NCBI GenBank assembly: GCA_964481895.1
Contig: CAYZUL010000005.1
Coordinates: 942-64,941, forward strand
DNA length: 64,000 bases
Direction of reading: 5' to 3'
DNA from: an uncultured Nitrospirota bacterium
GTDB lineage: Bacteria; Nitrospirota; Nitrospiria; JACRHA01
The notes beneath the pieces are model-generated. The model had not been told where the DNA came from and did not search any database. It saw nothing but the letters and a program-made list of their open reading frames with translations. The translations under genes were made by a program, and so were the position numbers. Positions 835 to 64,000 of this stretch are shown here, one piece after another. Position 1 is the stretch's first letter, and each line of letters begins with the position of its first letter.

Positions 835-1403
835 TACGCCTCATCATCCTTTCCTGATATATAGAGAGAAAGGAGCGTCTCCCCATATCTATATTCATCT
901 TTTAGCTCCATTTTTCCGGAAACAGGCTCCAATCTTTTCTTAAAAAAATGTTCAACTATAATCATACCACCGGGGGCAAGGATCTCTGCGCCTCCCAGCA
1001 GCGGCCAGATCTCCCTTTCAAGGATATCTGATTTATAGGGCGGATCTAAAAAGATAATATCATATCTCCTCCCCTCTCTTGCTGCCTTCCTTATATACTC
1101 CAAAGCCCCTGATAAAATTATCTCTCCCTTAACCCCGATCCCAAGGAGCGACAGATTCTCCCTGATAATTCTCAGGAACCTGGGATTATTTTCGACAAAT
1201 ATAACCTCCGAGGCCCCCCTGCTTAATGCCTCTATGCCGACACTCCCTGTGCCCGAAAAGAGGTCTAAAAACCTGCTCCCCTCTACTCTGTCCATTATGA
1301 TATTAAAGAGGGACTCCTTTACCCGGTCTGAGGTGGGTCTTAATTCCAACCCCTTTGGGGCCCTGATCCTTCTGCCTCTTGCAATACCGGATATGATCCT
1401 CAT
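834..1403 (-). CDS. rsmD: 16S rRNA (guanine966-N2)-methyltransferase RsmD
   Basis: 189 aa; RsmD-like motifs [19 protein letters not shown] and IFLDPPY; 1-nt start/stop overlap with coaD. Confidence 0.8.
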
Positions 1404-3982: not shown

Positions 3983-4056
3983 ATTTTATGAAGGCAGATC
4001 CTCTTAAAATATCGATAAAATTATACAATATAGCCCAATACTTCTCAATCCTTATC

Positions 4057-4085
4057 TTGACACCCGATGAGGGATTTGATACCCT
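4057..4085 (+). promoter_or_regulatory. Candidate sigma70-type promoter for tRNA-Lys
   Basis: TTGACA at 4057-4062, a 17-bp spacer, then a weak -10 TACCCT at 4080-4085, about 18 nt upstream of the tRNA 5' end. Confidence 0.25.
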
Positions 4086-4102
4086 TCGGAAAGATTGTAA
4101 GT

Positions 4103-4179
4103 GGGCCGCTAGCTCAGCCTGGTAGAGCACCGCCCTTTTAAGGCGGGTGTCGATGGTTCGAATCCATCGCGGCTCACCA
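4103..4179 (+). tRNA. tRNA-Lys (anticodon TTT), CCA encoded
   Basis: Manual cloverleaf fold: acceptor GGGCCGC/GCGGCTC, D-stem GCTC/GAGC, anticodon stem CCGCC/GGCGG with loop CTTTTAA, T-stem GATGG/CCATC, T-loop TTCGAAT, discriminator A then CCA. Confidence 0.9.
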
Positions 4180-4183
4180 AAGA

Positions 4184-5368: not shown

Positions 5369-5631
5369 TAGTCTATGGATTCAAACTAATTGTCATGGTA
5401 GTCCGCATTATACCTAACAACTTAAGCTATATCCAGAAATTTCACCCAAAATTTTCCCGACGCTGGACTCTTCATCTCTTTCATTATATAATGCCGGTAT
5501 TCATGCTGTTTGAAATGGCAGAACCCATTGACGGACCGATCGCCACATGTTATTCTTTCCGTCATGCGAATATCGTATCTGTCTCTTATCTCATGCACGC
5601 AGCATCCTTTTCTAGTAGAATCAAACTGCTG

Positions 5632-7260
5632 ATGCGTATATTCTTAATCCATATCCGTGATCCACAGTTTTACGCCCTGCCGGCCAAGACCCGCGCCAAG
5701 AACGGGAATATCCGGGTGATGGGCTTTCCTCCCATCGGCATCATGTCGCTCTCCGCCGTGCTCAAACTGGCGGGTCACGAGTGTGTGATGTTCGATCAGG
5801 CAAATCCCGACACACCCAATGACGTTATTATCGAAGAAATCCGCAAGCAGCGCCCCGCGCTTGTCGGCCTTAGTTTCCTGAGCACAACCAGTTATCCTTA
5901 CGCGAAGATCCTGGCCCGTCAGATCCGCGCGACCGATTCGAAAGTTCGGCTGGCGTTCGGCGGCGTCTTCGCCTCGCTCAACGCGCAGTTGGTCAAGCTC
6001 CAATGTCCCGAGGTCGACTTTGTCTGCCGCGGCGACGGCGAGCAGCTCATCCTGGATCTTATTGAGCGGCTCGACGCTCCCGAGACAGTGGAAAGTCTGA
6101 CGTGGGCCAAGGACGGCCAGGTGATGCAGAACCCCAACCGGACAATGGAGCGTCATCTCAATCAGTGGCCGTTTCCCGACCGTGAGGGGCTGCCTCTTGA
6201 CTTTATCGAGTCGATGCCGCTTGATGTGCCGGCGGTATTGTCGATGGAGCGCTTCACGACAATGCAGACCTCCCGCGGCTGTCCATGGCCGTGTATCTTT
6301 TGCGACATCCCGGTATTCAATGAGGGGAAGTGGCGCTCCCGCACTGCCGATCACGTAGTGGAAGAGTTTAAGCATCTCCAGAATCTCGGCTATGGGGCCG
6401 TTTATTTCGTAGACGATCACTTTCTCCTCCAGCCCAAACGGATCGAAGAAATTTGCCGGGGCATCATCGACGCCGGTGTAACAATCGAGTGGGGTGTTGA
6501 GGGGCGGGTCGACTCCGTTTGCCAACATCTCTTCCCAGTAATGGCAAAGGCGCACTGCCGAACGATCATGTTTGGAATCGAGACCGGCAGCCAGAAGGTG
6601 CTCAACCGGCTGAACAAGGAACAGACCCTGGAAGATGTCGAATCGGCGGTGACGACCGCCAAGAAAGCAGGCATCGAGATCGTACACGGCTTCTTCGTAG
6701 TTGGCACCCCGGACGAGACGGTGGAGGATATGCGGGCTACGTTCGACTTTGCGTCACGGCTCAGGCTCGATACCTTTGCGTTCAATCGACTCTGCGTCTA
6801 CCGCGGGACACCCCTGTGGCAGGAATATGTGCAGCGCGGCCTGGTCAATGACGTGACCGACTGGTACAAGTTTTTTAAGTGCTCGGAGATCGACCCCACC
6901 TGTCTGCCCGGTGAGGTCATTAATGCGGAGCGCAACGCGGGTATGCGCCGCCTATTTGTCTACAAACTGACGCATTACCCGATTCAAATCTTTACGTTGC
7001 TGCGCCGCTTCCTCCGCTTTATGCCTGTGCGTGACGTGATATATCTGATTGTCAAGCCGTTTCTGGGAAAAAAGCGGGGACAGACAAAGGCCGAAACACT
7101 GTCACGTGCCGTTGAGCACGGGGCTCACAAGGACACGGCCGCCGAGCTGACGCAGGTGTCGGATGATAAACTCGAATATGTCATCAATGAGTCGAAGGCC
7201 GAGCGCCTTCGCTCTCAGCAAGAGGCGGAAAAATCGGAAGTCACTGGCCAAGGTGCCTGA
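5632..7260 (+). CDS. B12-binding domain-containing radical SAM protein
   Basis: N-terminal cobalamin-binding-like domain followed by the radical-SAM cysteine triad CPWPCIFCD. The ORF-track start at 5395 is probably too far upstream; the ATG at 5632 (MRIFLIHIRD...) begins the conserved part. GC and codon usage are clearly higher than in neighbouring genes. Confidence 0.75.
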   Translation: MRIFLIHIRDPQFYALPAKTRAKNGNIRVMGFPPIGIMSLSAVLKLAGHECVMFDQANPDTPNDVIIEEIRKQRPALVGLSFLSTTSYPYAKILARQIRATDSKVRLAFGGVFASLNAQLVKLQCPEVDFVCRGDGEQLILDLIERLDAPETVESLTWAKDGQVMQNPNRTMERHLNQWPFPDREGLPLDFIESMPLDVPAVLSMERFTTMQTSRGCPWPCIFCDIPVFNEGKWRSRTADHVVEEFKHLQNLGYGAVYFVDDHFLLQPKRIEEICRGIIDAGVTIEWGVEGRVDSVCQHLFPVMAKAHCRTIMFGIETGSQKVLNRLNKEQTLEDVESAVTTAKKAGIEIVHGFFVVGTPDETVEDMRATFDFASRLRLDTFAFNRLCVYRGTPLWQEYVQRGLVNDVTDWYKFFKCSEIDPTCLPGEVINAERNAGMRRLFVYKLTHYPIQIFTLLRRFLRFMPVRDVIYLIVKPFLGKKRGQTKAETLSRAVEHGAHKDTAAELTQVSDDKLEYVINESKAERLRSQQEAEKSEVTGQGA

Positions 7261-7393
7261 GGCCGATCCTCGCATTCTATCCCTCCCTCCATTCAGCACT
7301 TCTTGAACTGGATAGATATATAAGTAAATCCCAATCTGTTGTATAATTAAACGGATCTATATTATAAATAGACCTAAATAAGGAGACGCTTAA

Positions 7394-8644
7394 TTGAAAA
7401 TATATTTATTCCTGATAGTCATTGCATACATCCTGAAAGAGGCATTCAAATATCTCGTCATCTATATGAACTTAAATCACATGATGAGAAAAGGGGATGT
7501 TGTACCGCCTGAATTTGATGGAAAGATCAATAAGGAAGGAATGAAAAAGGCAGGAGATTATCAGTCGGAGAGGGTCCGCTTCGGCATGATCGCGTCCCTA
7601 TTTAACAATATAGTCATAATCGTCTTTATCTTTGGCGGTCTTCTGAGCCTCTATAATAGATGGATCTCATCCTTAAACCTCCCCTTTATCTTTGCCGGGT
7701 GGCTCTTCTTTATACTCCTATTCTATACAAACGAGATCCTCTCCATCCCTTTTGGCCTATATAGCAGTTTTAAGATAGAGGCAAGGTACGGATTCAATAC
7801 AATGACACCCCGCCTCTGGCTCTCTGACTTTCTAAAGTCGATCTCTATCTCTACTGCCATGAACTCCCTCCTGATATTGGCCGGTCTCCTCTTGATTCAA
7901 TGGGCCCCCGATTCCTGGTGGATCTGGGTATGGACTTTTATTTTGGTCTACAGCATATTCTTTATGTATATATCGCCATATGTGATTGAACCCTTATTTA
8001 ATAAATTCGCCCCCATTGATGACGAATCGCTCAGAGAAAGGATCATCAGACTGACAGATAAGGTGGGCATACATGTCGGCAGGATACTAAAGATGGATGC
8101 CTCAAAGAGGAGCAGACATACAAACGCCTATTTCACGGGAATCGGGAAGACAAAGAGGATAGTCCTTTTTGACACCCTCCTGTCAGGCATGGATCAGGAT
8201 GAGATAATAGCTGTCCTTGCCCATGAGATTGGACACTGGAAGGGCAGGCATATCTTGAAGATGATGGTCATATCCGCTATCGTATCGCTTGTAGCCCTCT
8301 TTTTGACCTTCAGATTGACTCAGAGTGATCTCCTTTTGCGGCTCTTTAATATCAGCACAGACACACTCTTTGTAAAGCTGTTTATTATCTCATTCCTTGC
8401 AGGGATTGTAGCCACGCCCTTAAAGTGGTTTATGAGTTGGCTTAGCAGAAGGCATGAGAGGGAGGCCGACAGGACATCGTATGAACTTACATCAGATGGC
8501 GAGAGGATGGTGAGCGCCCTTGTAAAGCTCTCCAAGGAAAACCTCTCAAACCTCTATCCCCACCCCCTCTATGTCGCCATCTATTATTCCCATCCCCCTG
8601 TCCTGGAGAGGATAAGATATATAAGGTCTCTTTTAAAAGCATGA
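7394..8644 (+). CDS. M48-family zinc metallopeptidase (Ste24/CAAX-protease-like), membrane
   Basis: 416 aa with multiple TM helices and the HExxH motif in LAHEIGHWKGRH; TTG start preceded by AGGAGA. Confidence 0.8.
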   Translation: MKIYLFLIVIAYILKEAFKYLVIYMNLNHMMRKGDVVPPEFDGKINKEGMKKAGDYQSERVRFGMIASLFNNIVIIVFIFGGLLSLYNRWISSLNLPFIFAGWLFFILLFYTNEILSIPFGLYSSFKIEARYGFNTMTPRLWLSDFLKSISISTAMNSLLILAGLLLIQWAPDSWWIWVWTFILVYSIFFMYISPYVIEPLFNKFAPIDDESLRERIIRLTDKVGIHVGRILKMDASKRSRHTNAYFTGIGKTKRIVLFDTLLSGMDQDEIIAVLAHEIGHWKGRHILKMMVISAIVSLVALFLTFRLTQSDLLLRLFNISTDTLFVKLFIISFLAGIVATPLKWFMSWLSRRHEREADRTSYELTSDGERMVSALVKLSKENLSNLYPHPLYVAIYYSHPPVLERIRYIRSLLKA

Positions 8645-11212: not shown

Positions 11213-11983
<771 letters not shown>

Positions 11984-15741: not shown

Positions 15742-16926
15742 TCAATTTACAGTTCTATTGATACAGGAGAGGAACTCTATGGCTATTTGATCAGCAAGAA
15801 GGATCCCTTTACGGGTAAGTCTTATCCTGCCTGAAGAAAGCGTTATTATGTCTGCGGTGATTAACGTATCTATCTCTTTTCTGAATATCAATAACGGATC
15901 AACATTAAAGCGGCTCCTTATATCATACAGGTCTATCCCCTCTGTCTTTCTAAGCCCAAAGATGATGGCATCTGTCAACTGATCCTCCCTTGTGAGTATC
16001 TCCGCGCTGTTATCCGGACATCCTGAATCAATCAGGCTTATATATTCTTCTATGGAATCTGTGTTGCAGAATCTCCTGTTATTGATATATGAGTGAGCCC
16101 CGGCGCCTATGGCAAGATATTCGTCTCTATCCCAATAGAGCAGATTATGTCTGCTTGATCTGCCAGGGAGGCAGAAATTGGAGATCTCATAATGGAAATA
16201 GCCGGCCCCTTCTAACATTCCGGCGGCAGTCAGATACATCTCGATCTGACTTTCCTCGGATAACGGACTGATCTGACCCTTTTTGAGGCGGTCATAAAGG
16301 AGAGTACCTTCATCAATTGTAAGACAATATATAGAGATATGTTCAGGGGAAAGGGAGATTGCCTCCTCGACTGTTAAAAGCCATTCATTGATCTGCTGGT
16401 CCGGGAGGGCATATATAAGATCAAGGCCGATGTTTTTAAACCCTGTTGACCTGCAGGCCTTAAAGATGCAGCGCGCTTTATCAGCATCATGACTCCTGCC
16501 GAGAAGATTAAGGTATCTGTCAGAAAAGGACTGGACACCAAGGCTTATCCTGTTTATACCTATACGGATCAGGCCATCCAGTTTTTCCCTGTCCAGCGAA
16601 TCAGGATTGGCCTCTATAGTTATCTCGATCCCATCTTCCAGATAAAAAATTCTGCCGCATACATCGATTATATCTTTAATAACTGAGGGAGGAAGAATTG
16701 AAGGTGTACCTCCGCCGAAATATATGGTCTTGAGAGAACGGCCTTCAAGCCTGTATTCCCGGGCCCTTATAACTATCTCCCTTCTGATCGCGTCTATATA
16801 TCTCCGGGCCGAATCAGGGTTGTATGGAACAGAGTTGAATGAACAATAGAGGCACTTGCTAAGGCAGAAGGGAAAATGGATGTATAGACCAATAGTCTTT
16901 GTAGGGGCTCGCTGGTTTTTATACAT
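15742..16926 (-). CDS. hemW: Radical SAM heme chaperone HemW / oxygen-independent coproporphyrinogen-III oxidase-like
   Basis: 394 aa; N-terminal radical SAM CxxxCxxC (FCLSKCLYCSF) and a HemN-like C-terminal domain. Confidence 0.8.
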   Translation of the reverse strand: MYKNQRAPTKTIGLYIHFPFCLSKCLYCSFNSVPYNPDSARRYIDAIRREIVIRAREYRLEGRSLKTIYFGGGTPSILPPSVIKDIIDVCGRIFYLEDGIEITIEANPDSLDREKLDGLIRIGINRISLGVQSFSDRYLNLLGRSHDADKARCIFKACRSTGFKNIGLDLIYALPDQQINEWLLTVEEAISLSPEHISIYCLTIDEGTLLYDRLKKGQISPLSEESQIEMYLTAAGMLEGAGYFHYEISNFCLPGRSSRHNLLYWDRDEYLAIGAGAHSYINNRRFCNTDSIEEYISLIDSGCPDNSAEILTREDQLTDAIIFGLRKTEGIDLYDIRSRFNVDPLLIFRKEIDTLITADIITLSSGRIRLTRKGILLADQIAIEFLSCINRTVN

Positions 16927-32261: not shown

Positions 32262-32714
32262 ATGAAGGGGCAAAAGAGGAAGTTATTGAGTATCAGGAAG
32301 ATCATGGTCCCTACCGATTTTACAACATATTCAGACCATGCGATTGAATATGCAATCATGGTTGCCAGGAAATTCAAGGCAAAGATGCTGCTTGTCCATG
32401 TGATCGAACCGCTAGCTTATAGTGTAACTGATACTATGCAAGTTTTTGATCATTATACGGCATTAAAGACAGTCGCCAAACCGATCCTGGAAAACCTTCA
32501 AAAGAGGTTGTTAAAAAAAGGCCTTAAGGTAGACAGTATCCTTCTCGATGGGAATCCCTATCTTGAGATAGTCAAAAAATCCCGCGAGGCTGGGGTGGAT
32601 CTGATTATCATGGGGACCCATGGCCGTACGGGCATCGAGCATATCCTTATGGGGAGTGTGGCTGAGCGGGTCGTCCGCCTGGCATCGTGTCCTGTGGTGA
32701 CTGTGAGGGGATGA
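32262..32714 (+). CDS. uspA: Universal stress protein (UspA family), paralog A
   Basis: 150 aa; USP fold motifs (ILVPTDFT..., GTHGRTG...GSVAE); about 80% aa identity to the ORF at 56454..56906. Confidence 0.8.
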   Translation: MKGQKRKLLSIRKIMVPTDFTTYSDHAIEYAIMVARKFKAKMLLVHVIEPLAYSVTDTMQVFDHYTALKTVAKPILENLQKRLLKKGLKVDSILLDGNPYLEIVKKSREAGVDLIIMGTHGRTGIEHILMGSVAERVVRLASCPVVTVRG

Positions 32715-51031: not shown

Positions 51032-51445
51032 ATGAATAGAAGTGATTTAAAACTACTATCACTCATCAGGCTTAGAGAAGCACGGGTACTATTAAAAAAT
51101 AAAAATTATGAAGGAGCTTATTATCTTTGCGGCTATGTTATTGAATGTGGGCTGAAGGCTTGTATTGCAAAGAAAACTAAGAGATATGATTTTCCAGACA
51201 AAAAAGCTGTCAATGATAGTTACTGTCATAATCTTGCAACACTTGTTAATACAGCCGGTCTTAGCATAGAATTAGATAAAGAAAAGAAAAGCTATTCAAT
51301 ATTTGAAAGTAATTGGAGTACCGTTAAAGACTGGTCACAAGTGAGTCGTTATGAAAAACATACTGAGAAAGAAGCGCAAGATCTTTTTTATGCAATCACA
51401 GATAAAAGACATGGAGTTTTGAAATGGTTAAAGCGGCATTGGTAG
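51032..51445 (+). CDS. HEPN domain protein
   Basis: 137 aa; helical HEPN pattern (REARVLLKNKNYEGAYYLCGYVIECGLKACIAKK...SRYEKH); lies in an AT-rich islet. Confidence 0.55.
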   Translation: MNRSDLKLLSLIRLREARVLLKNKNYEGAYYLCGYVIECGLKACIAKKTKRYDFPDKKAVNDSYCHNLATLVNTAGLSIELDKEKKSYSIFESNWSTVKDWSQVSRYEKHTEKEAQDLFYAITDKRHGVLKWLKRHW

Positions 51446-51490
51446 AATAAGATATACAAGAGCCAGTTCAAGTTCAGGAGGCAGTTCAAA

Positions 51491-51880
51491 ATGTTTGTTA
51501 AAGCTGCATTGGTAAAAGAAGATTTACACGATGGCAAGAGATTAATTGAAGCGTTGGATAAAGCAAACTTTAAAGTCCAAGCCGCGCTATGGTTCTACTT
51601 GGCTGATTCTGATGAATGGCGGCTTTATATTTCTTCCCCATTTGTAGAAAAAGAAGGGCCTAGAAAATCTTATAATTTTATTCAAAAAATCTTGGCAAGG
51701 CTTGCGCCACCTTCTAGTTTCTCTTTAACAGACATTACAGTTCTAAGTCCTTCTAGCAATTTGGTTAAACTAATGAGAGTAGCGGTCCGGACTGGGCCTG
51801 GCATATCGGGCATCCGATTTACTCGAAATGTTATAAATAATACTTTGATAGAGGATGCATATATTTATCGTATTGTGTGA
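51491..51880 (+). CDS. Hypothetical protein, partner of the HEPN gene (no recognisable motif)
   Basis: 129 aa, same strand, 45 nt downstream of the HEPN gene. It lacks the GS..DxD nucleotidyltransferase motif expected of an MNT partner. Confidence 0.4.
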   Translation: MFVKAALVKEDLHDGKRLIEALDKANFKVQAALWFYLADSDEWRLYISSPFVEKEGPRKSYNFIQKILARLAPPSSFSLTDITVLSPSSNLVKLMRVAVRTGPGISGIRFTRNVINNTLIEDAYIYRIV

Positions 51881-52227: not shown

Positions 52228-52533
52228 TCATGCAATATCATCTAAATTTCGTGACCCATGAACAACTCGGTGAATTTCGATAATTTTACTGCGGACTATG
52301 TAAAATACAAGGTAGGATTCAATCACGAGGATGCGATAGCCTGAATTTTTAAGCTTGTCATCTTTCGGTACCCGGCCAAGAAACGGGTGGGATTTAAGGC
52401 TGCCAATGTGATGATTGAGTTTATCAATAAAAATTGCGGCATTGGCCGGACTGACATTTCCAATCCAGTCTAAGATCGAGACAAGATCGTCAACGGCAAC
52501 AGGAAGGTAACGAAGGGTGTATCTATTAGCCAT
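52228..52533 (-). CDS. parE: ParE/RelE-family type II toxin
   Basis: 101 aa; ParE-like pattern (...YRILVIESYLVFYIVRSKIIEIHRVVHGSRNL); 8-nt overlap with the upstream antitoxin gene. Confidence 0.7.
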   Translation of the reverse strand: MANRYTLRYLPVAVDDLVSILDWIGNVSPANAAIFIDKLNHHIGSLKSHPFLGRVPKDDKLKNSGYRILVIESYLVFYIVRSKIIEIHRVVHGSRNLDDIA

Positions 52534-52792
52534 GCAAGTGTTGCATGAGTTTTTTCATCACTTGCGAATGGGTAAGCCCTTTTTCTCCGCTGGCGGCCTG
52601 GGCCTGAGCAACAGCGAGTTTTTCGAAAAGCTCGACCCTTGCCTTTAGCCTTTCATAGTGTTCGATGCTCATTACAACAAGGTCGCCCTCGCCATTAGTT
52701 GTCAGATAAACAGGTTCATCCTGTTCATGGCACAATGAGGCAATATCTCTTGTTTTATTACGAAGACTTGAGATAGGTTTTATTATCGGCAT
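52526..52792 (-). CDS. phd: Phd/YefM-family type II antitoxin
   Basis: 88 aa; Phd/YefM N-terminal fold pattern (IIKPISSLRNKTRDIASLCHEQDEPVYLTTNGEGDLVVMSIEHYERL). Confidence 0.7.
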   Translation of the reverse strand: MPIIKPISSLRNKTRDIASLCHEQDEPVYLTTNGEGDLVVMSIEHYERLKARVELFEKLAVAQAQAASGEKGLTHSQVMKKLMQHLHG

Positions 52793-56453: not shown

Positions 56454-56906
56454 ATGAAGGAACAAAAAAGAAAGTTTTTGCCGATCAAGAAGATCCTTGT
56501 GCCGACTGATTTTACAGTCTATTCAGATCATGCAATTGAATATGCAATTATGGTTGCCAGGAAATTCGAGGCAAAAATCCTGCTTATCCATGTAATCGAA
56601 CCGTTTGCTTATAGCGTAACTGATACAGTCCAAATAATTGATCATTATACGGCATTAAAGACAGTGGCACGGCCTATCCTGGACAACCTGCAAAAGAGGT
56701 TGTTAAAAAAAGGCATTAAGGTAGACTGTACCCTTCTCGATGGGAATCCCTATCTTGAGATAGTCGAGAAATCCCGTCAGGCAGGTGCGGATCTGATTAT
56801 CATGGGGACCCATGGCCGTACGGGCATCGATCATATCCTTATGGGGAGTGTGGCTGAGCGGGTTGTACGCCTGGCGCCATGCCCTGTATTAACAGTAAGG
56901 GGCTGA
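56454..56906 (+). CDS. uspA: Universal stress protein (UspA family), paralog B
   Basis: 150 aa; about 80% identical to the uspA at 32262. Confidence 0.8.
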   Translation: MKEQKRKFLPIKKILVPTDFTVYSDHAIEYAIMVARKFEAKILLIHVIEPFAYSVTDTVQIIDHYTALKTVARPILDNLQKRLLKKGIKVDCTLLDGNPYLEIVEKSRQAGADLIIMGTHGRTGIDHILMGSVAERVVRLAPCPVLTVRG

Positions 56907-56987
56907 TGCCCCCAATGTCTGCGGAACATCGCAGGTATTTTGTATTGCATTTTCTAATAAATTACAAACTCATACTGCAAGGGAGGA

Positions 56988-57326
56988 GTGATAAGCATGA
57001 AGAGATCAATCATGTTTTGTTTTATGGGAATAGTCCTTATTGGCATGGCAGAATGCACGTTAGTGCTTGCCGCAGGACCTGAGACTGAAAAGGGAAAGAT
57101 GTTATACGAAGGGAAAAAATGTGGTCTTTGCCATGCCATTAATGGAAAGGGCGGCAAGAAAGGTACTGATCTATCTGATACTGGTAACAAAAGGGACGCG
57201 GGATGGCTGATGAAGTACTTGAAAGATCCAAAAGGGACCTTGCCTGGCGCTAAGATGATGCCTGTTAAGGCCTCTCCGGAAGAACTATCGGCGCTTATTG
57301 ATTACATGTTATCGCTTAAGAAATAG
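56988..57326 (+). CDS. Periplasmic monoheme cytochrome c (class I)
   Basis: 112 aa; signal peptide, CGLCH heme-binding motif, distal Met candidates (KMMPVK). Confidence 0.75.
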   Translation: MISMKRSIMFCFMGIVLIGMAECTLVLAAGPETEKGKMLYEGKKCGLCHAINGKGGKKGTDLSDTGNKRDAGWLMKYLKDPKGTLPGAKMMPVKASPEELSALIDYMLSLKK

Positions 57327-57375
57327 GAGAGACTTACCGATTTATATAAAAGACACTATAGAGCGGAGGTTACAA

Positions 57376-58596
57376 ATGGACGTACGATTTCTTTCCAAGG
57401 GTTTATTATGGTTTTATGTGTTCATTTTTATTTCCATATTTTTTGAGGCCTTATATCCCGCCAAGGCCCATGCCATTCCGGCCTTTACCAGAAAATATAA
57501 TGCAGACTGCTCTATGTGCCACTATCCAAATCCACCCAGACTTAATTCCTTTGGACAGGAATTTCGCCGGGCAGGCTTCAGGACACCGGATGAATTCAAT
57601 AAAGATCAGGACATTTCCAAGGTCGGGGACTTCTTGTCTGTTCGTGGCAGGGCCCGCTATGAATATGTAAACCCTGAAGGAAAGCCCGTCGAGAGCCAGT
57701 TTAAATGGAATGACACTACATTCTTTTATGCAGGGGCCTTGACCAAAAATCTAACCTCTTTTACTGAATTAGAAGTTGCGCCAGAAGGAAAGGAAACTGA
57801 GGTGGAGTTGGTGGCCTCCATCGGAGGGGTCTTCGGACAGCCGGATCATTACTCTACTTTCAGAGTGGGACAGTTCCATGCTTTGACACGGGTAGGTTTT
57901 GGGGGGTTCGATCGGCCAACAGGGATCAGCACGGCCTCTGCCCTCTCTTCAGATCTCACCACAGGAGGTGTCCCTTTTAAGATCAACACAGACCAGAGGG
58001 GACTGGAATTAACCCATGTCTTCAAAAAATCCAGGATGATCGCCCAGATCCTAAATGGAATAGATGAGGGGGGGAAGGGGACGGTGGATGACACCAATAC
58101 TGCCAAGGATTATTCCATTGCCTATGAAAGGATCTTAGATGACCTGGCATCAGGCTTTACCATCTATGGTTACTGGGGTAGCTGGTTTAATAACGATGAC
58201 CCAGCACTAGGCCAGAGGGCCGGGTTTGCACGGTATGCATTAACGGGAAACAAGATCTTCCCTGGTATCCTCGCCGGAAATTTTGAGGTAATGGCAGGTT
58301 ATGTGCGAAGCCAGGATGCTGCGCCTTCTTCACTCGGCGGGAATGTCCAGGGCAATGCCTTCTTTGTGGAAATCGAGGATTATTTTGAGCCTCATAATTT
58401 TACTCTCCTTGTCAGATACGATTTCATTGATCCCGAAGATGATACCGGAAATGACAGGAAGGAGAAATGGACTATAGGTTATGTCCGGACATTTCAAAGT
58501 TACTTGAGGCTGGCAGTGGAGGCAAATACATCACGAGACGACAAAAAAGATACAACTGATTACGGCGTAACAGGGGAGCTTATGATTAACTTTTGA
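57376..58596 (+). CDS. Cyc2-like fused monoheme cytochrome c / outer-membrane porin
   Basis: Start set at the ATG at 57376, which has a GGAGG RBS at 6-nt spacing; the track start at 57298 overlaps the upstream gene. Signal peptide ...PAKAHA, then a CxxCH (ADCSMCH) about 15 aa into the mature protein. The remaining ~370 aa show an amphipathic beta-strand pattern and end ...GELMINF. Confidence 0.6.
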   Translation: MDVRFLSKGLLWFYVFIFISIFFEALYPAKAHAIPAFTRKYNADCSMCHYPNPPRLNSFGQEFRRAGFRTPDEFNKDQDISKVGDFLSVRGRARYEYVNPEGKPVESQFKWNDTTFFYAGALTKNLTSFTELEVAPEGKETEVELVASIGGVFGQPDHYSTFRVGQFHALTRVGFGGFDRPTGISTASALSSDLTTGGVPFKINTDQRGLELTHVFKKSRMIAQILNGIDEGGKGTVDDTNTAKDYSIAYERILDDLASGFTIYGYWGSWFNNDDPALGQRAGFARYALTGNKIFPGILAGNFEVMAGYVRSQDAAPSSLGGNVQGNAFFVEIEDYFEPHNFTLLVRYDFIDPEDDTGNDRKEKWTIGYVRTFQSYLRLAVEANTSRDDKKDTTDYGVTGELMINF

Positions 58597-58639
58597 CAGA
58601 AGTTAGCGTTCGTCCACTTATGAAAGTTCGGAGGGAGGC

Positions 58640-59359
58640 ATGAACTTAAGGACTCAGGGTCTGCCCGTTAAGATCCTCTTTACCTGTTTTCTCGGCACCA
58701 TCGGGATCGCTTATCTCTCTGCCATTACCTATCTCTTTTTAATAGATATTGAGCCGCATGCCAAAGGTAATTTGGGTATAGTCCACGCCGTGATTATCAA
58801 GTATTATGGTCAAAGGGGGACTACCCGGCTGGAAGCAGCCCTGGATGGGGGCATGGGTGAAAATATCACCCCTGCCCAGAAAAAACAGATCTCTGAATGG
58901 ATCCGTAAAGGGGCGCTTCCATCAGGTTTTGAATCGATAAAACCAATCTTTCTTAATAACTGCACTGTTTGCCACAGCAAGGAGTCGGGCATGCCCATTT
59001 CTCCACTTACCAGCTTTGATGAGGTGGCCGCCTATACCCAGATTGATATAGGCCAATCAGTAAAAAGCCTGGTGCGCGTATCACATATACATCTCTTCGG
59101 GATGAGCTTTCTCTTCTTGCTTACAAGCTGGATCTTTGTACTGAGTGAAATTGCCGTCAAATGGCGCGCCATCCTGGTATCGGTCCCTTTTGCAGCCATC
59201 TGGATAGATATAGGATCATGGTGGTTTACAAAATTTGAGCCCCTTTTTGCCTATTCAGTAATCGCCGGAGGTGCCTTGATGGGTCTCTCTCTGGCAGCGC
59301 AGATCATAATTTCACTCTGGGAGATGTGGCTTAAGGAAGGGAAAATAATAGAGGTCTAG
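58640..59359 (+). CDS. Four-TM membrane protein with a c-type heme-binding loop (CTVCH)
   Basis: 239 aa; TM1 then a soluble loop containing NNCTVCHSKESGMP, then three further TM helices. No family recognised. Confidence 0.5.
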   Translation: MNLRTQGLPVKILFTCFLGTIGIAYLSAITYLFLIDIEPHAKGNLGIVHAVIIKYYGQRGTTRLEAALDGGMGENITPAQKKQISEWIRKGALPSGFESIKPIFLNNCTVCHSKESGMPISPLTSFDEVAAYTQIDIGQSVKSLVRVSHIHLFGMSFLFLLTSWIFVLSEIAVKWRAILVSVPFAAIWIDIGSWWFTKFEPLFAYSVIAGGALMGLSLAAQIIISLWEMWLKEGKIIEV

Positions 59360-59394
59360 CCGGCTAAAAACATCGGTCTCGTGGGATTGGATTT

Positions 59395-59889
59395 TTATTT
59401 ATGAATATGCTCCTCTGCTTTTCCCCCATGGGAGAAGGTATGGGTATAGGCGATCACCTTCCAGATCTGATCTTCTTTGAGTTTCCCCTTCCATGGCGTC
59501 ATCGGGGTTTGCGGCACTCCTTCTGCGGTCCGCCAATACATATAACTATCTGTCATCTTACTTACATATTCTGCATCCCTGAGATCACGCGTACCAGTCA
59601 GAAGAGGCCTTCCATCACGTCCATGGCATGCAGCACATACCACATCCGGATCTACCATCCCATCATAGATCTTTTTCCCTTCAGTGATCACCTTGGGATC
59701 TGTCCACCATCCTTTCGGCATATGTTTGTCCTCGTATTCCTTAGGAATCTTGTCCAATGCCGGCATCTTGGGCTTCTCGCCGAACGCCACCATCATTGTA
59801 AAAAAGACAATCAGAAAAGATATTCCGATCATACATAGGTTTCGCATCTGTCGCCCCCTTTTATAAAAAGCCCATTTTAAAGACCTCAT
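59395..59889 (-). CDS. Membrane-anchored monoheme cytochrome c
   Basis: 164 aa; N-terminal signal anchor and a CAACH heme motif. The alternative start at 59847 has a better RBS (GGGGG). Confidence 0.7.
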   Translation of the reverse strand: MRSLKWAFYKRGRQMRNLCMIGISFLIVFFTMMVAFGEKPKMPALDKIPKEYEDKHMPKGWWTDPKVITEGKKIYDGMVDPDVVCAACHGRDGRPLLTGTRDLRDAEYVSKMTDSYMYWRTAEGVPQTPMTPWKGKLKEDQIWKVIAYTHTFSHGGKAEEHIHK

Positions 59890-59914
59890 TTTTTCTCTTA
59901 TTTTCTAAAATTCT

Positions 59915-60709
59915 TTAGTTTCCCTCTTTTTTGGGTGGAAAGATAGGTTTTGGCGAATTTCCTGCCGGATCTTTAAGGGACATGAGATATGCTACTAGTG
60001 CGTCCCGCTCCACTTCGCTCATAAGTCTAGGATAATTTTCCGGCATCACCACCTTCTTGTACTCATTTTCAAACCCTTCGGCATACCATGCCATGGGGTC
60101 CCAGAGTTTATCTTTTAATTGCCCGGCCATAAGCAGATTGCCGATATTGTCCAGCGCAGGCCCCCGGCGCTTCACTCCCCCTTTTCCGCCAACCTTGTGG
60201 CAATTATAACACTCATAGTCTTTGTACACCTGTTTTCCAAAGGCGATCTGTTTTGCAACGTTTTCTGCTAGAGCAGGCCCGCCGGGGGGAATCTTTTTGG
60301 TCGCTCGGGTCATACCTTCCTTTTCCAATTCTGCAAGGAGTTCTTTCTTGGCGGCCTCGACTGCTTCGGTTATGGCCGTTTTTTCCTTCTCTTTCTCCTG
60401 CTCGATAGTCATATGCTGGATCCGCCGGATTTTTTCTATCTCGATCCCTGGATCATACTGTGGGAGCAACATACCTGCAAGGGTTATTATGAACGATGCG
60501 GCGAGAAAGAAGGTGGCGATTGCAAGAATAGGGCTTTTCGGCAGGCGCATGGCCTTAGCATCAAGGAGCAAAAAGAATGAAAACCCCAACAGCACATAAC
60601 CTACGAAGAAGATCCTGAAGATAACAGGGAAACCAACCCAACTGCTGCCCGACCATACTACTGTACTCAAAATCAGGGTCCAGACGAGTTTGTATCTCAA
60701 CCTCTTCAT
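59915..60709 (-). CDS. Membrane-anchored (3 TM) monoheme cytochrome c
   Basis: 264 aa; three N-terminal TM helices, a coiled-coil linker (EQEKEKEKTAITEAVEAAKKELLAELEKE) and a C-terminal cytochrome-c domain with CYNCH. Confidence 0.7.
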   Translation of the reverse strand: MKRLRYKLVWTLILSTVVWSGSSWVGFPVIFRIFFVGYVLLGFSFFLLLDAKAMRLPKSPILAIATFFLAASFIITLAGMLLPQYDPGIEIEKIRRIQHMTIEQEKEKEKTAITEAVEAAKKELLAELEKEGMTRATKKIPPGGPALAENVAKQIAFGKQVYKDYECYNCHKVGGKGGVKRRGPALDNIGNLLMAGQLKDKLWDPMAWYAEGFENEYKKVVMPENYPRLMSEVERDALVAYLMSLKDPAGNSPKPIFPPKKEGN

Positions 60710-60720
60710 AAGAGTATCCT

Positions 60721-62280
60721 TTACGAATCGCCGCCTTCAATTCGCACCTTTAATGCTTTTGTCCTTCCAAGACCCAGACTGATCCAGATGCAGAATCCGA
60801 TCATCAGGAAGAATAAAAGGGAGATCAAAGTCACCAAGAGGCTGGACCATGCAAGGGTTGGTGTGTAAGCATCCGGGGTCATATCCTTCATGAGGATATA
60901 GATATGGAAATGCTTTCTTCCCAGGGAGCGGACAGCTCCCATAAGGCCCATAGTCCAGATTGCGGCAAAGGCAAGGAAGATCAAGGCATACTGCGATGCC
61001 GGGTCAATTTTACCCCATTGGATGGTCCCCCGTCTGATGGAAACTCTATACAATATATAACTCATCAAGACCACTGCAATGCTCAATCCAGCAGCTATAT
61101 TTTTGATCGGCATCAGCGCCATAAAACCTAGATGAGAGGGGAGTTCCATCTGTGTTACGTACTTGTCGGGATCTGCACCTTCCGGAAGGGCTCCTGGATC
61201 CAATATCATGGTGGCAAAGAAATGCCTTGGTGTCATCCAGATGGCATTGCAGATCAGGATCAGCACAAACCCGGCCCTGATAAGGGGTGCAAAGCGTTCC
61301 GCACCGGTGATCCTTTTCATAGAGAGCCAGATATAGTAGTTGCCGGCAAGATACATAAGACCGATTAGAATCCCCTGCATCTCATAGAACATTGAAAGCC
61401 TGTCGGACATCATATAGATCCCCAGGGAGGCATCATATTGATAAATTTCATAGCCATAGAGATAGCCTGGAAAAGCCAGAAGCATGAAGGTAACAAGACC
61501 GATCAGGTTGCCTATAAATCCCATCCAATCATAGAAGATCCGATCTTCATCGGTCTTAGATGTCATGTACATTACGGCAGCGATTAGACAGACAATGAAT
61601 CCACCGAAGGCCACATTGGATATAAAGCGGTGGATGTTAAGCGGCCACCAGGTAAAATTGTTCATCAACTCCCACAGTGTGGCCTTTTCATAATCTTTTA
61701 CCGGTGTATTCATAAAGCTGGTGACGGCATTCATGAGGAACATTACGGCTGTCCCAGTGATATTCAGTAATACCCCGATGGCAATATGAAAACCTTTACG
61801 GTATTTAAGCACATCCCAACTGTATAAATATGTGTACATCAATAGTGACTCTACTATGAATAAAATTGGATAGAAGATAATCCAGAGGGGGAAAAAGTAG
61901 GTCATGAGAAATGTGGAAAGCTTCGGATAAAGGGCAATTAGCAGCAGCGTAAAGAGCCCTCCGGTCAGGGCGGTAAGGCTGTAAGCCACAGCGGTGACCC
62001 TCGTAACCTCCCTGGCCAGGCGCTCATATCGATGATCCTTTTTCTTATAACCGATATATTCGCATATTACCACAAAGATGGGGGCACCTAAGATGAAGGC
62101 AGCAAAATTGAGCATTAGTTGGGCAGCAATCCAGATCACGGTTCGATTACTCACGTAGGGAAGGGTAACCTCTTTGTATTGAATTACCTCTTCTGCTCCA
62201 TAAACAACCGTAGTGGTTGCGGCCAGTGAAATCACTGCCAGTAAAATGGCCGGTTTGCGCAGAGATATCAACGATGCCAT
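60721..62280 (-). CDS. Cytochrome bd-like oxidase subunit (CydA homolog, no Q-loop, no adjacent cydB)
   Basis: 519 aa with about 14 TM helices; collinear with CydA helices. The conserved Glu region reads FPILFIVESLLMYTY, and NITGTAVMFLMNAVTSFMNTP corresponds to N..SALWILVANGWMQNP. The canonical heme His ligands are not all conserved. Confidence 0.65.
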   Translation of the reverse strand: MASLISLRKPAILLAVISLAATTTVVYGAEEVIQYKEVTLPYVSNRTVIWIAAQLMLNFAAFILGAPIFVVICEYIGYKKKDHRYERLAREVTRVTAVAYSLTALTGGLFTLLLIALYPKLSTFLMTYFFPLWIIFYPILFIVESLLMYTYLYSWDVLKYRKGFHIAIGVLLNITGTAVMFLMNAVTSFMNTPVKDYEKATLWELMNNFTWWPLNIHRFISNVAFGGFIVCLIAAVMYMTSKTDEDRIFYDWMGFIGNLIGLVTFMLLAFPGYLYGYEIYQYDASLGIYMMSDRLSMFYEMQGILIGLMYLAGNYYIWLSMKRITGAERFAPLIRAGFVLILICNAIWMTPRHFFATMILDPGALPEGADPDKYVTQMELPSHLGFMALMPIKNIAAGLSIAVVLMSYILYRVSIRRGTIQWGKIDPASQYALIFLAFAAIWTMGLMGAVRSLGRKHFHIYILMKDMTPDAYTPTLAWSSLLVTLISLLFFLMIGFCIWISLGLGRTKALKVRIEGGDS

Positions 62281-62302
62281 CGTTATTCCTTTTAAAACTG
62301 TT

Positions 62303-62863
62303 TTAGAAGAGGGGATGAAATGCTACGCCGAATTGGCCAGGTTCAATAGACTCTGTATCATGTCCGAAGATCTTCCATTCCCCCTCTTCATGGATCAGAT
62401 AATGAACCTCATCGACCCAACCATCAATCCGCTCCTTCTTTCCGGTGCGTGTATTTATGCCGAATACTAAACCGGTACACACAATATATGCCATACGTTT
62501 GGACCGATCAATATGGATCCGATTGAAGGTATGGCCTATAAGTAGTTCCTTATAATCCTGGAAAAGCCTGGTCCAGACCTTTCTTATTTCATTCCGGTCT
62601 GCCCCTAGGTGGGCATAGTTCTTTGAATATGAATTCATCAGCCCATTGAGATTCTTTGATTGGATAGCTTTGTCCGACTTCTCAAAGGTTGACATAAGTT
62701 CCTTAACCTCTTCCGGGAGGGCATGTATCTCGGCATTCTTACCTATGACTGTTTCGGCCATCAGAGGCCCAATAGACCAGAGAATTAGAAATAAAATAAA
62801 AAGTATAATAAAGAATGACCTGCCGGTCGTAAGGCAGGAATTAGGTTTAACATCTAATGTCAT
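62303..62863 (-). CDS. Membrane-anchored hypothetical protein (NTF2/SnoaL-like fold suspected)
   Basis: 186 aa; N-terminal TM anchor; co-directional with and 23 nt upstream of the bd-like oxidase gene. Confidence 0.4.
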   Translation of the reverse strand: MTLDVKPNSCLTTGRSFFIILFILFLILWSIGPLMAETVIGKNAEIHALPEEVKELMSTFEKSDKAIQSKNLNGLMNSYSKNYAHLGADRNEIRKVWTRLFQDYKELLIGHTFNRIHIDRSKRMAYIVCTGLVFGINTRTGKKERIDGWVDEVHYLIHEEGEWKIFGHDTESIEPGQFGVAFHPLF

Positions 62864-62903: not shown

Positions 62904-63104
62904 TTATTTAAACGTCTTAATATAAGCGATCAGATCTTCCATGTCCGTCTTTTTAAGAACACCTACATTCAATCTCGAAGTGCAACATATGCAACCTCGA
63001 GGGGCGTTTTGTAGTCCTGGCATTGACGCCTCCTTACTTACTTTTAATATTATCCCATGAATTAGATTAATACAACCTGGAGCAAGATCTCCACATCTTT
63101 TCAT
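62904..63104 (-). CDS. Hypothetical small Cys-containing protein (uncertain)
   Basis: 66 aa ORF with four Cys (CINL...CICC); no family recognised and coding status uncertain. Confidence 0.2.
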   Translation of the reverse strand: MKRCGDLAPGCINLIHGIILKVSKEASMPGLQNAPRGCICCTSRLNVGVLKKTDMEDLIAYIKTFK

Positions 63105-63367: not shown

Positions 63368-64000
63368 ATGAACGTTAAAGTAATTGGAGTTTTGTTATTA
63401 GCATTGATGTTTTTAGTCAGTCCTGTAATCTATGCCCAGATGATGGGTGATGGGATGATGAAGGGTGGCCAGATGGCGGCCGAAGGGGAAGAAGAGGGTC
63501 AGATGCCCCAGATGCCGATGATGCATGGGATGATAAATCGGGTGATGGAGATGATGCAGGAGATGATGGAGGGCATGAGAGGTATGGCCCAGGATGAACC
63601 GACAAAGGAAAAGATGGATGGGATGATGATGGAGATGGACGAGATGATTAAACAGCATGAGGCGATGATGGAAGGGATGATGTCTGGTTCAATGATGGGA
63701 CGCTCTGATGAGATGAAGCCTGTCGAAAAGATGAAAGGGACTATGTCTTCTGCGACACAGAAAAATAGCGGCGGCGGGGTGACAGTAGAAGCGACCCTGC
63801 TAAATCCAAAGGATATTGATGAGAGGGTCACCTTCAGTCTTAAGTTCGATACGCACAGTGTAAACCTCGATGAATATGACCTGGCAAACATCTCACACCT
63901 TAGGGATGACCTTGGAAGGGAACTGCATGGGCCTGTCCTTGAAAAAGCTGAAGGAAGCGGACATCATCGGAGCGCGATAATATCCTTCTCAAATAAGAAT
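63368..64000 (+). CDS. Met-rich periplasmic protein, putative Cu/Ag-binding (paralog B), partial at window end
   Basis: ATG at 63368 with an AGGAGG RBS; the translation MNVKVIGVLLLALMFLVSPVIYAQMMGDGMMKGGQ...MPMMHGMINRVMEMMQEMMEGMRGMAQD...GGGVTVEATLLNPK... parallels the 42350 ORF. It is absent from the ORF track because it runs off the window. Confidence 0.7.
   Translation, partial: MNVKVIGVLLLALMFLVSPVIYAQMMGDGMMKGGQMAAEGEEEGQMPQMPMMHGMINRVMEMMQEMMEGMRGMAQDEPTKEKMDGMMMEMDEMIKQHEAMMEGMMSGSMMGRSDEMKPVEKMKGTMSSATQKNSGGGVTVEATLLNPKDIDERVTFSLKFDTHSVNLDEYDLANISHLRDDLGRELHGPVLEKAEGSGHHRSAIISFSNKN

Follow-up and report, generated by a model that had tools for sequence, protein, structure and literature searches.

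A putative Cyc2-family operon and a bd-like operon with a substituted heme ligand meet as separately inherited modules in an uncultured Nitrospirota bacterium

Cyc2 proteins, among them Cyc2 of A. ferrooxidans, Mariprofundus Cyc2 PV-1 and Leptospirillum Cyt572, are defined by a signal peptide, a single CXXCH, the motif AxPxFAR[Q/K][T/Y] upstream of it and P-x-L four residues downstream (Keffer et al. 2021, PMC8406198), with a length of at least 365 aa and a 16-strand OprO/OprP-like barrel as further criteria (PMC8406198). The family is widespread in Nitrospirota, and its homologues in the Manganitrophaceae are called Cyc2 and regarded as candidate Mn(II) oxidases (PMC9040806). The bd-like proteins of the OR-N family have no quinol site, are encoded in operons with alternative electron donors and have either 10 (N3-N5) or 14 (N1/N2) transmembrane (TM) helices (Murali et al. 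2021). Both Cyc2 and bd-like complexes are thus known in Nitrospirota, and for 'Ca. Manganitrophus' they have been combined into a hypothesised chain from metal to O2 (PMC9040806), so that the concept of such a chain is not new. Here we describe a locus at positions 56,997-62,863 of a 64,000-nt stretch of DNA from an uncultured groundwater Nitrospirota bacterium (assembly GCA_964481895.1, contig CAYZUL010000005.1, positions 942 to 64,941; hereafter the window), in which a putative Cyc2 gene (g2) and a bd-like gene (g6) stand in two neighbouring operons. Two respiratory modules that were inherited separately make up this locus, a Cyc2 module (A, g1-g3) and a bd-like module (B, g4-g7). The locus resembles the chain proposed for 'Ca. 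Manganitrophus' in that it belongs to the same phylum and holds both Cyc2 and a bd-like terminal oxidase complex, for which passage of metal electrons to O2 has been proposed; in the Manganitrophaceae, however, Cyc2 and the terminal oxidase (TO) form separate clusters alongside PCC porin-dodecaheme complexes (PMC9040806), whereas here the two are physically adjacent.

The genes of the locus were delimited from the open reading frame (ORF) listing, Pfam and NCBIfam scans and hydropathy (Table 1). Three genes on the plus strand (g1-g2-g3), with gaps of 49 and 43 nt between them, and four on the minus strand (g7-g6-g5-g4), with gaps of 22, 11 and 25 nt, meet tail to tail across 35 nt; since the same-strand gaps are short, Shine-Dalgarno-like sequences precede genes of both strand groups and the two groups converge across only these 35 nt, they form two convergent operons. 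A terminator was searched for in the 35-nt convergent gap and none was found, and a promoter scan returned promoter-like sites at chance level. A terminator-like hairpin (56914-56939) lies between g1 and the gene for a universal stress protein (Usp) preceding it. The six genes listed in a preliminary description of this DNA were all recovered, as was the convergence of the first three with the last three, but a seventh, g7, had been missed there.

We regard g2 as a putative Cyc2-family fused monoheme cytochrome-porin of the outer membrane, since it agrees with the published motif and structure criteria except for one Ala-to-Thr exchange and since its Manganitrophaceae homologues are named Cyc2; the label Cyc2-like, which it had carried in the preliminary description, thus held. 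The most likely start is the ATG at 57376 rather than the listed TTG at 57298. Pfam gave no match to g2. A hydrophobic helix at residues 3-25 constitutes the signal peptide, and the only CXXCH is the CSMCH that stands within AIPAFTRKYNADCSMCHYPNPPRL. In the heme region (AIPAFTRKY-NAD-CSMCH-YPNP-PRL), the motif PAFTRKY deviates by one residue, Thr for Ala, from the strict PxFAR[Q/K][T/Y], which is present as PAFARKY in the orthologues P0123 (75% identical) and L003 (76%); P-x-L stands four residues downstream of the CXXCH, and P54, R55 and L56 are invariant in the family alignment. The AlphaFold2 model, built with 43 homologues (predicted local distance difference test (pLDDT) 86.5, predicted TM-score (pTM) 0.82), places exactly 16 β-strands after a heme domain that is short and helical, and a Foldseek search with it returned 16-strand porins including OprP (2o4v) and OprO (4rjw). 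With its signal peptide, its single N-terminal CXXCH, AxPxF-R-K-Y three residues before the heme cysteine, P-x-L, a length of about 400 aa and an OprP/OprO-like barrel, g2 resembles the Cyc2 iron oxidases named above. It departs from classical Cyc2 in having Thr for the consensus Ala and a conserved extra partner outside the classical model, the Aq_1264_TM protein g3.

A profile of the g2 family matched 3,041 cluster representatives at E ≤ 0.001. Among the best 150 of these representatives, 139 have a CXXCH within the first 140 residues, 133 of them as the only heme motif; the strict Cyc2 motif was found in 34 of the 139 and the relaxed one in 64, with a spacing between motif and cysteine of 3 residues in 63 and of 4 in the remaining one. 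The relatives of g2 come from Nitrospirota, Acidobacteriota, Gemmatimonadota and Omnitrophota, and g2 is 46-48% identical to homologues in metagenome-assembled genomes (MAGs) of Manganitrophaceae. This taxon spread suggests that g2 resembles the poorly understood, Cluster-3-like part of the Cyc2 family. Cluster 3, which holds Leptospirillum Cyt572, is the functionally most uncertain part of the tree (PMC8406198), and for Cyt572 an origin within a dense cluster of homologues from Nitrospira and Acidobacteria has been reported, taxa that match those of our scan. Instead of oxidising Fe(II), g2 might accordingly serve Mn(II) oxidation, the outward exit of electrons, metal detoxification or redox sensing. 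Its nearest named homologues include those of the Manganitrophaceae, Cyc2 homologues also occur in nitrite-oxidising Nitrospira (PMC9040806) and in many phyla that are not known to oxidise iron, and the surroundings of the locus, with Usp, FtsH, a YHS-domain P-type ATPase and a Met-rich periplasmic protein, have the look of metal stress. Every Cyc2 that has been tested, on the other hand, oxidises Fe(II), namely those of A. ferrooxidans, Leptospirillum (Cyt572) and PV-1 (PMC8406198) and a Nitrospirota Cyc2 (PMC13647500), and the predicted small pore and inner heme of Cyc2 suit dissolved Fe2+ (PMC9040806). We therefore consider a function other than Fe(II) oxidation improbable for g2.

The two further genes of module A encode putative electron carriers. 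g1 is a small exported class-I monoheme cytochrome c with a signal-like N-terminus and a candidate periplasmic shuttle in a Cyc1-like role; its position next to g2 recalls cyc2-cyc1 loci, in which a small periplasmic cytochrome c likewise adjoins the Cyc2 gene. g3, a monoheme cytochrome with four TM helices and its CTVCH in the loop after the first of them, is predicted to be an inner-membrane cytochrome c of the uncharacterised family PF27139 (Aq_1264_TM): the Pfam scan of g3 itself gave no family, and the 98%-identical protein P0241 and all 120 listed homologues have a precomputed PF27139 match. Invariant residues are H40, M72, C108/C111/H112, H149, H151, W194 and W195. H40 lies just after TM1 and H149-x-H151 at the start of TM2; all three histidines are at the periplasmic membrane face and could form a second heme or metal (cofactor) site.

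In module B, g6 is predicted to be a bd-like protein of the OR-N type and not a canonical bd oxidase. Its AlphaFold2 model (pLDDT 84.5) has an N-terminal signal-like helix and about 12 long membrane helices, and the ten best matches of a fold search against the PDB were all CydA, at 13-15% identity. In the sequence and profile searches against solved structures, the match to the CydA of Geobacillus (residues 8-157 of 5doq_A) and of mycobacteria was confined to the first four helices, and the Pfam and PDB sequence matches end at about residues 190-282 of g6. A BLASTP comparison with E. coli CydA was non-significant (E = 4.3), tblastn of E. coli CydB against the whole window gave E values of 3.5 or worse, no CydB-like ORF was found in the window or after g6, and no quinol-binding Q-loop was recognisable in g6. 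On these grounds a canonical cytochrome bd quinol oxidase was rejected, in agreement with the preliminary description, which had taken the CydA-like protein to be non-canonical and had named grouping with canonical CydA together with a nearby cydB as the opposite outcome. Compared with canonical CydAB(X) of E. coli, Geobacillus and Mycobacterium, g6 has in common the N-terminal helix fold (Foldseek TM-score 0.45-0.53) and the residues H217 (equivalent to His186) and E144 (equivalent to Glu107). In contrast to them, it has a signal peptide, cytochrome c partners instead of quinol, Met for His19 and Tyr for Glu99, and no CydX.

The search returned 1,760 full-length homologues of g6 at E ≤ 0.001. 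Identities of 47-83% prevail among the 120 listed, which come from Nitrospirota, Methylomirabilales, Anaerolineae, anammox bacteria and Nitrospinae. In a neighbour-joining tree g6 grouped with P0001-P0003, followed by P0004/P0009 and P0014, which are members linked to Mo enzymes or Aio, and apart from both a Nitrospira clade of 575-590-aa proteins and an anammox/Nitrospinae clade, with E. coli CydA as a distant outgroup. Like the described OR-N proteins (Nitrospira NIDE0901 / bd-like_1-4, Manganitrophus TO_1-TO_4; Murali 2021, Mundinger 2019, Yu 2022), g6 has a CydA-like four-helix core, neither Q-loop nor CydB, more TM helices than canonical CydA, and membrane-bound c-type cytochromes encoded with it; it is 47-56% identical to members of the Nitrospira clade. 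The operon with a single CydA-like gene fits the description of OR-N2, and the roughly 12 TM helices of g6 stand against 10 or 14 in the OR-N subfamilies. Unlike the Nitrospira and Manganitrophus proteins, g6 belongs to a subclade that follows twin-arginine (TAT) Mo enzymes or AioBA, carries the exchange of His19 for Met and has a Cyc2 operon alongside, and its locus lacks a second CydA-like subunit, a periplasmic cytochrome b, MrpD and an ACIII partner. The resemblance to Nitrospira bd-like oxidase loci pointed out in the preliminary description hence extends to the OR-N clade and its c-type cytochromes, but not to the subclade, which is distinct, nor to the Cyc2 adjacency, which was seen nowhere else.

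The partners of g6 were examined in the same way. Two membrane-anchored monoheme cytochromes had been described, and g5 indeed shows two TM peaks at residues 29-47 and 61-79, whereas the one hydrophobic segment at the N-terminus of g4 could be a cleavable signal peptide instead of a membrane anchor. g7, an exported and weakly SnoaL/NTF2-like protein with an N-terminal hydrophobic segment, is probably the product of the first gene of the operon.

The metagenome scan for close relatives of g6 returned only five loci, most of them short. In the annotated neighbourhoods (Table 1), the relatives of g6 recurrently follow Mo enzymes with RRxFLK twin-arginine signals, and the small proteins of 143-177 aa encoded in these Mo operons are Sec-exported monoheme cytochromes c. 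In L001, the g5 homologue is followed by Rieske/cytochrome b genes, more cytochromes c including a g4 homologue, and TatA, and in L095 a multiheme cytochrome takes the place of the TorD/NarJ-like chaperone. Only the enzyme of L089 is a bona fide AioBA. Those of L001 and L090 are unclassified, since they fall below all NCBIfam equivalog cut-offs; an Arx/Arr-type identity, suspected from the adjacent ArsR and TorD/NarJ-like genes, was rejected for the same reason (ArrA 125 bits vs 1600). A Pfam-less gene of L001 encoding 402 aa was considered as a Cyc2 and rejected as well, as it had no tblastn match to g2 and NCBIfam identified β-propeller repeats.

A g5 homologue directly follows the bd-like gene in every relative examined (L001, L002, L082, L083, L085, L087, L089, L090 and L096). 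The 390-395-aa cytochromes of L087 and L089 are diheme proteins that align as g5 and then g4; this fusion of a g4 homologue to the C-terminus of a g5 homologue, found in L085, L087 and L089, belongs to the relatives with the ligand His (His-type). Separate g4 orthologues, 69-70% identical, are present in L001 and L002, and L083, from Hainich groundwater, has g7-g6(Met)-g5-g4 collinear with the window. The g5-g4 fusion and the conserved order indicate that g6-g5-g4 is one functional unit, in which g5 and g4 act with g6. Its placement behind periplasmic dehydrogenases that reduce cytochrome c is the best evidence for module B as a cytochrome-c-fed electron sink, and it is strongly supported that the module accepts electrons originating from periplasmic cytochrome c. 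The unit g6-g5-g4 is a portable sink for cytochrome-c electrons, which in this lineage adjoins a putative metal-oxidation front end. For the Aio-type arsenite oxidase, the natural sink would by analogy be O2.

Position 56 of g6 is a Met. The corresponding column, equivalent to Geobacillus His21 and E. coli His19, the residue that axially ligates the active-site heme, coincides with the heme-ligating His in three solved structures of CydA (5doq_A, 9r2g_A and 7nkz_A) and holds His in 115 of 119 aligned family members; Met was found in the window protein and P0001-P0003 only, and also in the g6 homologue of L083. TM1 of g6 contains no His at all. The exchange of His for Met requires at least two nucleotide changes, the five Met-type proteins are 77-83% identical to each other, and all other invariant residues, H165, H217, E144, H459 and others, are retained; Met56 is therefore an old and selected state and neither a sequencing error nor the mark of a pseudogene. 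Nor does the state of the ligand follow the neighbourhood, as the Met-type gene follows a Mo enzyme operon in L001 and L002 but g7 in the window and L083. Tyr137 replaces the equivalent of E99 throughout the g6 clade. Met can ligate heme, usually raising its potential, and we infer that Met56 still ligates one; the exchange could tune the site to high-potential donors or abolish O2 chemistry. That g6 and its four relatives make up a small clade in which the superfamily-wide ligand His19 has been stably replaced by Met, and thus a ligand-switched enzyme if Met56 ligates the heme, is a proposal that we make tentatively and with considerable doubt.

These exchanges bear on an explanation in which module B is not an O2 reductase and acts as a cytochrome-c:quinone (or other) oxidoreductase or as a membrane anchor, with metal electrons being driven uphill to the quinone pool for CO2 fixation. 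Met at the position of the His that ligates the O2-site heme and Tyr137 in the whole clade would fit such a role, as would the 52%-identical homologue in the Mo-enzyme/multiheme cluster of Anammoxibacter; contact with the quinone pool and reverse electron transport have been proposed in the Nitrospira literature for the bd-like_3 cluster, which together with the anammox example keeps a quinone-directed role alive. The missing Q-loop, however, argues against it, the operon of aioBA, bd-like gene and dicytochrome c in L089 is more easily read as leading from As(III) to O2, and the uphill transfer from a high-potential Rieske protein or cytochrome c to quinone would need an energy input, of which none is visible in the cluster. 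The BluB encoded in the window also implies O2 in the habitat. We judge a role of module B other than O2 reduction to be quite unlikely.

In order to describe the surroundings of module A, we scanned a Cyc2-like alignment against 185,579 species-representative genomes, which gave 79 loci, and searched their flanks by tblastn with all window proteins. A g1-like cytochrome c adjoins the Cyc2-like gene in 15 of the 79 loci, a g3 homologue stands at most 2 kb downstream in seven, all of them from Nitrospirota, and a g7-like gene is present in three. Across the annotated neighbourhoods, g3 homologues follow Cyc2 and cytochrome c in L005-L008, L012, L016, L045 and L093, g7-like genes flank Cyc2-like genes in L003 (twice), L029, L054 and L094, and Usp homologues adjoin Cyc2-like genes in L008/L093, L011, L012 and L021, and also in L094. 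Usp, of which the window has copies at 56454-56906 and 32262-32714, is thus a recurrent neighbour of Cyc2-like genes and not a redox component. In the Nitrospirota MAG OFTM244 (L093, 1978-12637), genes for MtrC/OmcA-like, MtrA-like and MtrB/PioB proteins, Usp, a Cyc2-like protein, cytochrome c, Aq_1264_TM, a Rieske protein and a cytochrome b/c fusion stand together, which puts module A squarely in a context of extracellular electron transfer, linked to a bc complex. This locus holds two different extracellular electron transfer systems and a bc complex side by side. A more distant genome (L094, GCA_040960765.1, 9596-19456) shares synteny with 23-32 kb of the window; between its carboxyltransferase and FtsH-Usp genes, homologues of g1 and g3 are present but Cyc2 is missing. 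Beyond Usp, genes follow for a Porin_5 porin and for an unclassified Mo enzyme and its FeS subunit, then a C-terminal remnant of 40 residues from a Cyc2-like gene, and a g7-like gene. Respiratory modules appear to have been swapped repeatedly at this chromosomal site.

The closest relative of the whole locus is found in the MAG 'Nitrospirae bacterium NC_groundwater_1765_Pr3_B-0.1um_46_13' (GCA_016234185.1), whose contig JACRHA010000180 (L091) is 91-96% identical to the window at the nucleotide level; the relatives of the individual genes are overwhelmingly from uncultured Nitrospirota/Nitrospiria, including Manganitrophaceae. L091 lacks three stretches of the window, namely 32.2-54.4 kb, 57,010-57,188, which takes in the heme-binding part of g1, and 57,394-58,557, which covers nearly the whole of g2. 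L092, an independent assembly (SRR12113407) that is too short to show the first gap, shares the other two, and g3-g6 are intact in both assemblies. Remnants at the sister locus show that g1 and g2 are ancestral and have decayed in the sister strain, and the presence or absence of cyc2 is a natural polymorphism between sister strains. An assembly chimera at the g3|g4 junction was ruled out, as the junction is reproduced independently in L091 and L092. A second, divergent copy was found on another contig of the same MAG (L003, JACRHA010000171.1, 20-3412), with g7 (88% identical at the amino-acid level) and, divergently oriented, g1' and g2' (76%), a g7 paralogue, a YHS protein and HtrA. Since L091 breaks off within g6 and L003 opens where the g6 start codon would stand, the two contigs may be contiguous, in which case the bd-like operon would have an intact Cyc2 operon on its opposite side, divergent from g7.

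The first gap of L091 corresponds to a segment of about 22 kb (32200-54448) between the carboxyltransferase and FtsH genes, with the second Usp, a YHS/TRASH-domain P-type ATPase, a second FtsH, an ArsM/UbiE-like methyltransferase, HtrA, LolA-like and MacB-like ABC genes, an outer-membrane protein and toxin-antitoxin pairs at 51032-51880 and 52228-52792. GC falls to 0.405 at 50-52 kb, and on L003 of the sister MAG it is the HtrA part of this segment that adjoins the second Cyc2 copy. High plasticity marks the region, and the two modules could be accidental neighbours in a region prone to rearrangement, with module B draining other periplasmic dehydrogenases and Cyc2 feeding an oxidase or bc complex encoded elsewhere. 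The 22-kb difference with its duplicated FtsH and Usp and its toxin-antitoxin genes, the loss of g1 and g2 at the sister-strain site, the position of the Cyc2 module before Rieske/cytochrome b instead of a bd-like gene in L093, the ties of g6 relatives to Mo/Aio operons and the lack of co-localisation in the Cyc2-like loci all agree with chance proximity. Yet a Mo enzyme for module B to serve is absent from the window, g7-like genes occur with either type of module, in the sister MAG the operon may have a Cyc2 copy on its far side as well, and a Cyc2-like gene lies about 7.5 kb from the bd-like cluster in L095. On balance we hold chance proximity to be unlikely. This and the other two alternatives, on g2 and on module B, overlap and are not mutually exclusive.

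The reading with which these alternatives compete is a complete chain from Fe(II) through Cyc2, g1 and membrane cytochromes to g6 and O2. In this chain, the heme of g2 in the outer membrane would oxidise dissolved Fe2+, the most likely donor, with Mn2+ as a less likely alternative, and the electron would pass to the soluble periplasmic cytochrome c g1 and from there to membrane cytochromes, g3 and/or g4 and g5. g4 and g5 would feed the b-type hemes of g6, which would most probably reduce O2 at a heme pocket facing the periplasm, and the charge separation across the membrane would conserve energy as in bd oxidases. Fe(II) as the donor, the transfer from g1 to g4/g5 by which module A would feed module B, and O2 as the acceptor are each proposed; for the link between A and B, we count the g3|g4 junction in two assemblies, L091 and L092, the g7-like genes beside both module types and the possible abutment of L003 and L091. 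We regard the complete chain as evenly balanced between being right and being wrong.

Several observations weigh against it. No bd-like gene was found within ±10 kb of the Cyc2-like gene in any of the 79 loci, 61 of which extend for 5 kb or more to one side of it. The closest relatives of g6 go with Mo enzymes and not with Cyc2, and in the six annotated neighbourhoods whose bd-like genes are most similar to g6 no Cyc2 gene adjoins, the partial exception being a Cyc2-like N-terminus about 7.5 kb from the bd-like cluster on the anammox contig L095. L091 has lost g2 and the heme-binding part of g1, yet has kept g3-g6 at 91-98% amino-acid identity. As the modules are separate convergent operons, their co-expression cannot be assumed. 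On the side of the acceptor, no OR-N protein has been shown biochemically to reduce O2, their oxygen affinity 'still remains unknown' (PMC12342949), homologous bd-like clusters occur in anammox bacteria as well, and the Met clade of g6 is an exception to the retention of His19 reported for all CydA paralogues (Murali et al. 2021). On the side of the donor, the function of Cyc2 homologues beyond the known iron-oxidiser clades is explicitly uncertain (PMC8406198). The electron path from the outer membrane to an inner-membrane oxidase suggested in the preliminary description consequently stands as far as its parts, their c-type partners and the relatives that follow dehydrogenases with an exported cytochrome c of their own are concerned, but its two halves were inherited independently. 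A conserved, dedicated iron-oxidation operon did not emerge from the comparison of neighbourhoods that had been suggested there, and the juxtaposition of A and B is confined to this lineage.

Table 1 Features of the window and neighbourhoods of g6 relatives. Positions are those of the window for the upper eleven rows and those of the respective locus sequence for the g6 relatives; identities are to g6, and Met or His is the residue at the position of the ligand His19.
Feature	Position	Strand	Description
BluB	11225-11983	+	TIGR02476, 261 bits vs cut-off 150 (equivalog level)
HemW-type radical-SAM heme chaperone	15742-16926	-	
Usp (universal stress protein)	56454..56906	+	PF00582, E = 1.7e-34; directly 5' of Cyc2 operon
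g1	56997..57326 (alternative GTG start 56988)	+	109-112 aa; PF00034 at 40 bits; CGLCH at 57120-57134
g2	57376..58596	+	406 aa; signal peptide; single CSMCH (residues 45-49; 57508-57522)
g3	58640..59359	+	239 aa; 4 hydrophobic helices; CTVCH at 58961-58975
g4	59395..59889	-	164 aa (150 aa from Met15); PF13442/PF00034; CAACH at 59623-59637
g5	59915..60709	-	264 aa; two N-terminal TM helices; PF00034 at 43 bits; CYNCH at 60197-60211
g6	60721..62280	-	519 aa; PF01654 at 71.5 bits, residues 51-282 only
Met56 codon of g6	62113..62115	-	Position of axial heme ligand His19 (E. coli) / His21 (Geobacillus)
g7	62303..62863	-	186 aa; exported; weak SnoaL_3 match (E = 0.006); 22 nt upstream of g6
L001	1255-8467		83%; Met; TAT Mo enzyme (879 aa), FeS subunit, 158-aa protein, ArsR, TorD/NarJ-like chaperone, bd-like, g5 homologue
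L002	33-4492		80%; Met; L001-type core without bc genes
L087/L088	3659-10713 (L087)		69%; His; Mo enzyme, FeS, small protein, chaperone, bd-like, 390-aa cytochrome c
L090	3040-9935		68%; His; order as L087/L088; g5/g4-type cytochrome c gene runs off contig end
L089	4753-10687		66%; His; aioXSR-like regulators, AioB (TIGR02694, 160 bits), AioA (TIGR02693, 1061 bits), bd-like, 395-aa cytochrome c
L095 (Anammoxibacter)	756-8515		52%; His; Mo/FeS/small-protein core, multiheme cytochromes

The remaining window encodes housekeeping and stress genes, among them BluB, HemW, rubrerythrin, two FtsH, two Usp, a YHS-domain P-type ATPase and toxin-antitoxin pairs. Scans of the 64 kb found no molybdoenzyme and no oxidase besides g6, and neither a PCC nor a multicopper oxidase was found within the window. 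The bluB gene reported previously was recovered well above its cut-off; BluB is the O2-dependent 5,6-dimethylbenzimidazole synthase, and its presence indicates exposure to O2. Upstream of g7, a 66-aa ORF (62904-63104, minus strand) ends in DLIAYIKTFK, which resembles the C-terminus of a cytochrome c, without a CXXCH; its N-terminal part is conserved in L003, and it may be the remnant of a decayed cytochrome c gene. At the end of the window, a plus-strand gene that runs off it (63383-64000) encodes an exported and extremely Met-rich protein (MMGDGMMKGGQM...MMHGM...MMEGM...) without a family match, a composition of the kind that characterises Cu(I)-binding proteins of the periplasm. Its antisense frame accounts for the His-rich ORFs at 63413-63891.

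Taken alone, such a gene content is now to be expected in Nitrospirota genomes of this kind. Judged by the literature searched, and with the proviso that absence from it is no proof of novelty, three things are new: the lineage-specific adjacency of modules A and B, the clade in which Met replaces His19, and a bd-like subclade that is recurrently coupled to AioBA or other TAT Mo enzymes, with its g5-g4 fusion; no description of an Aio-bd-like operon was found in that literature. Whether the bd-like oxidases of Nitrospirota, Nitrospinota and anammox bacteria reduce O2, and what the role of Cyc2 homologues is beyond the classical iron oxidisers, have been open questions for about 15 years, and the locus sharpens both and answers neither. 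The unit of bd-like protein and dicytochrome c is plugged behind different sources of electrons, arsenite oxidase, unclassified Mo enzymes and Cyc2, which argues that it accepts electrons from cytochrome c. Natural His and Met variants of the key heme ligand are available for comparison, and the presence or absence of cyc2 between near-identical strains can be used in metatranscriptomic and enrichment studies of metal oxidation in groundwater. If Met56 ligates the active-site heme, the proteins of the Met clade could reduce O2 while being adjusted to donors of very high potential, among them Fe(II), Mn(II) and As(III), or they could equally have ceased to be oxidases and serve as high-potential electron-transfer modules driven by cytochrome c. 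The recurrent operons of Mo enzyme or AioBA, exported cytochrome c, bd-like protein and dicytochrome c would then offer the first genetically tractable handle on the function of the OR-N family.

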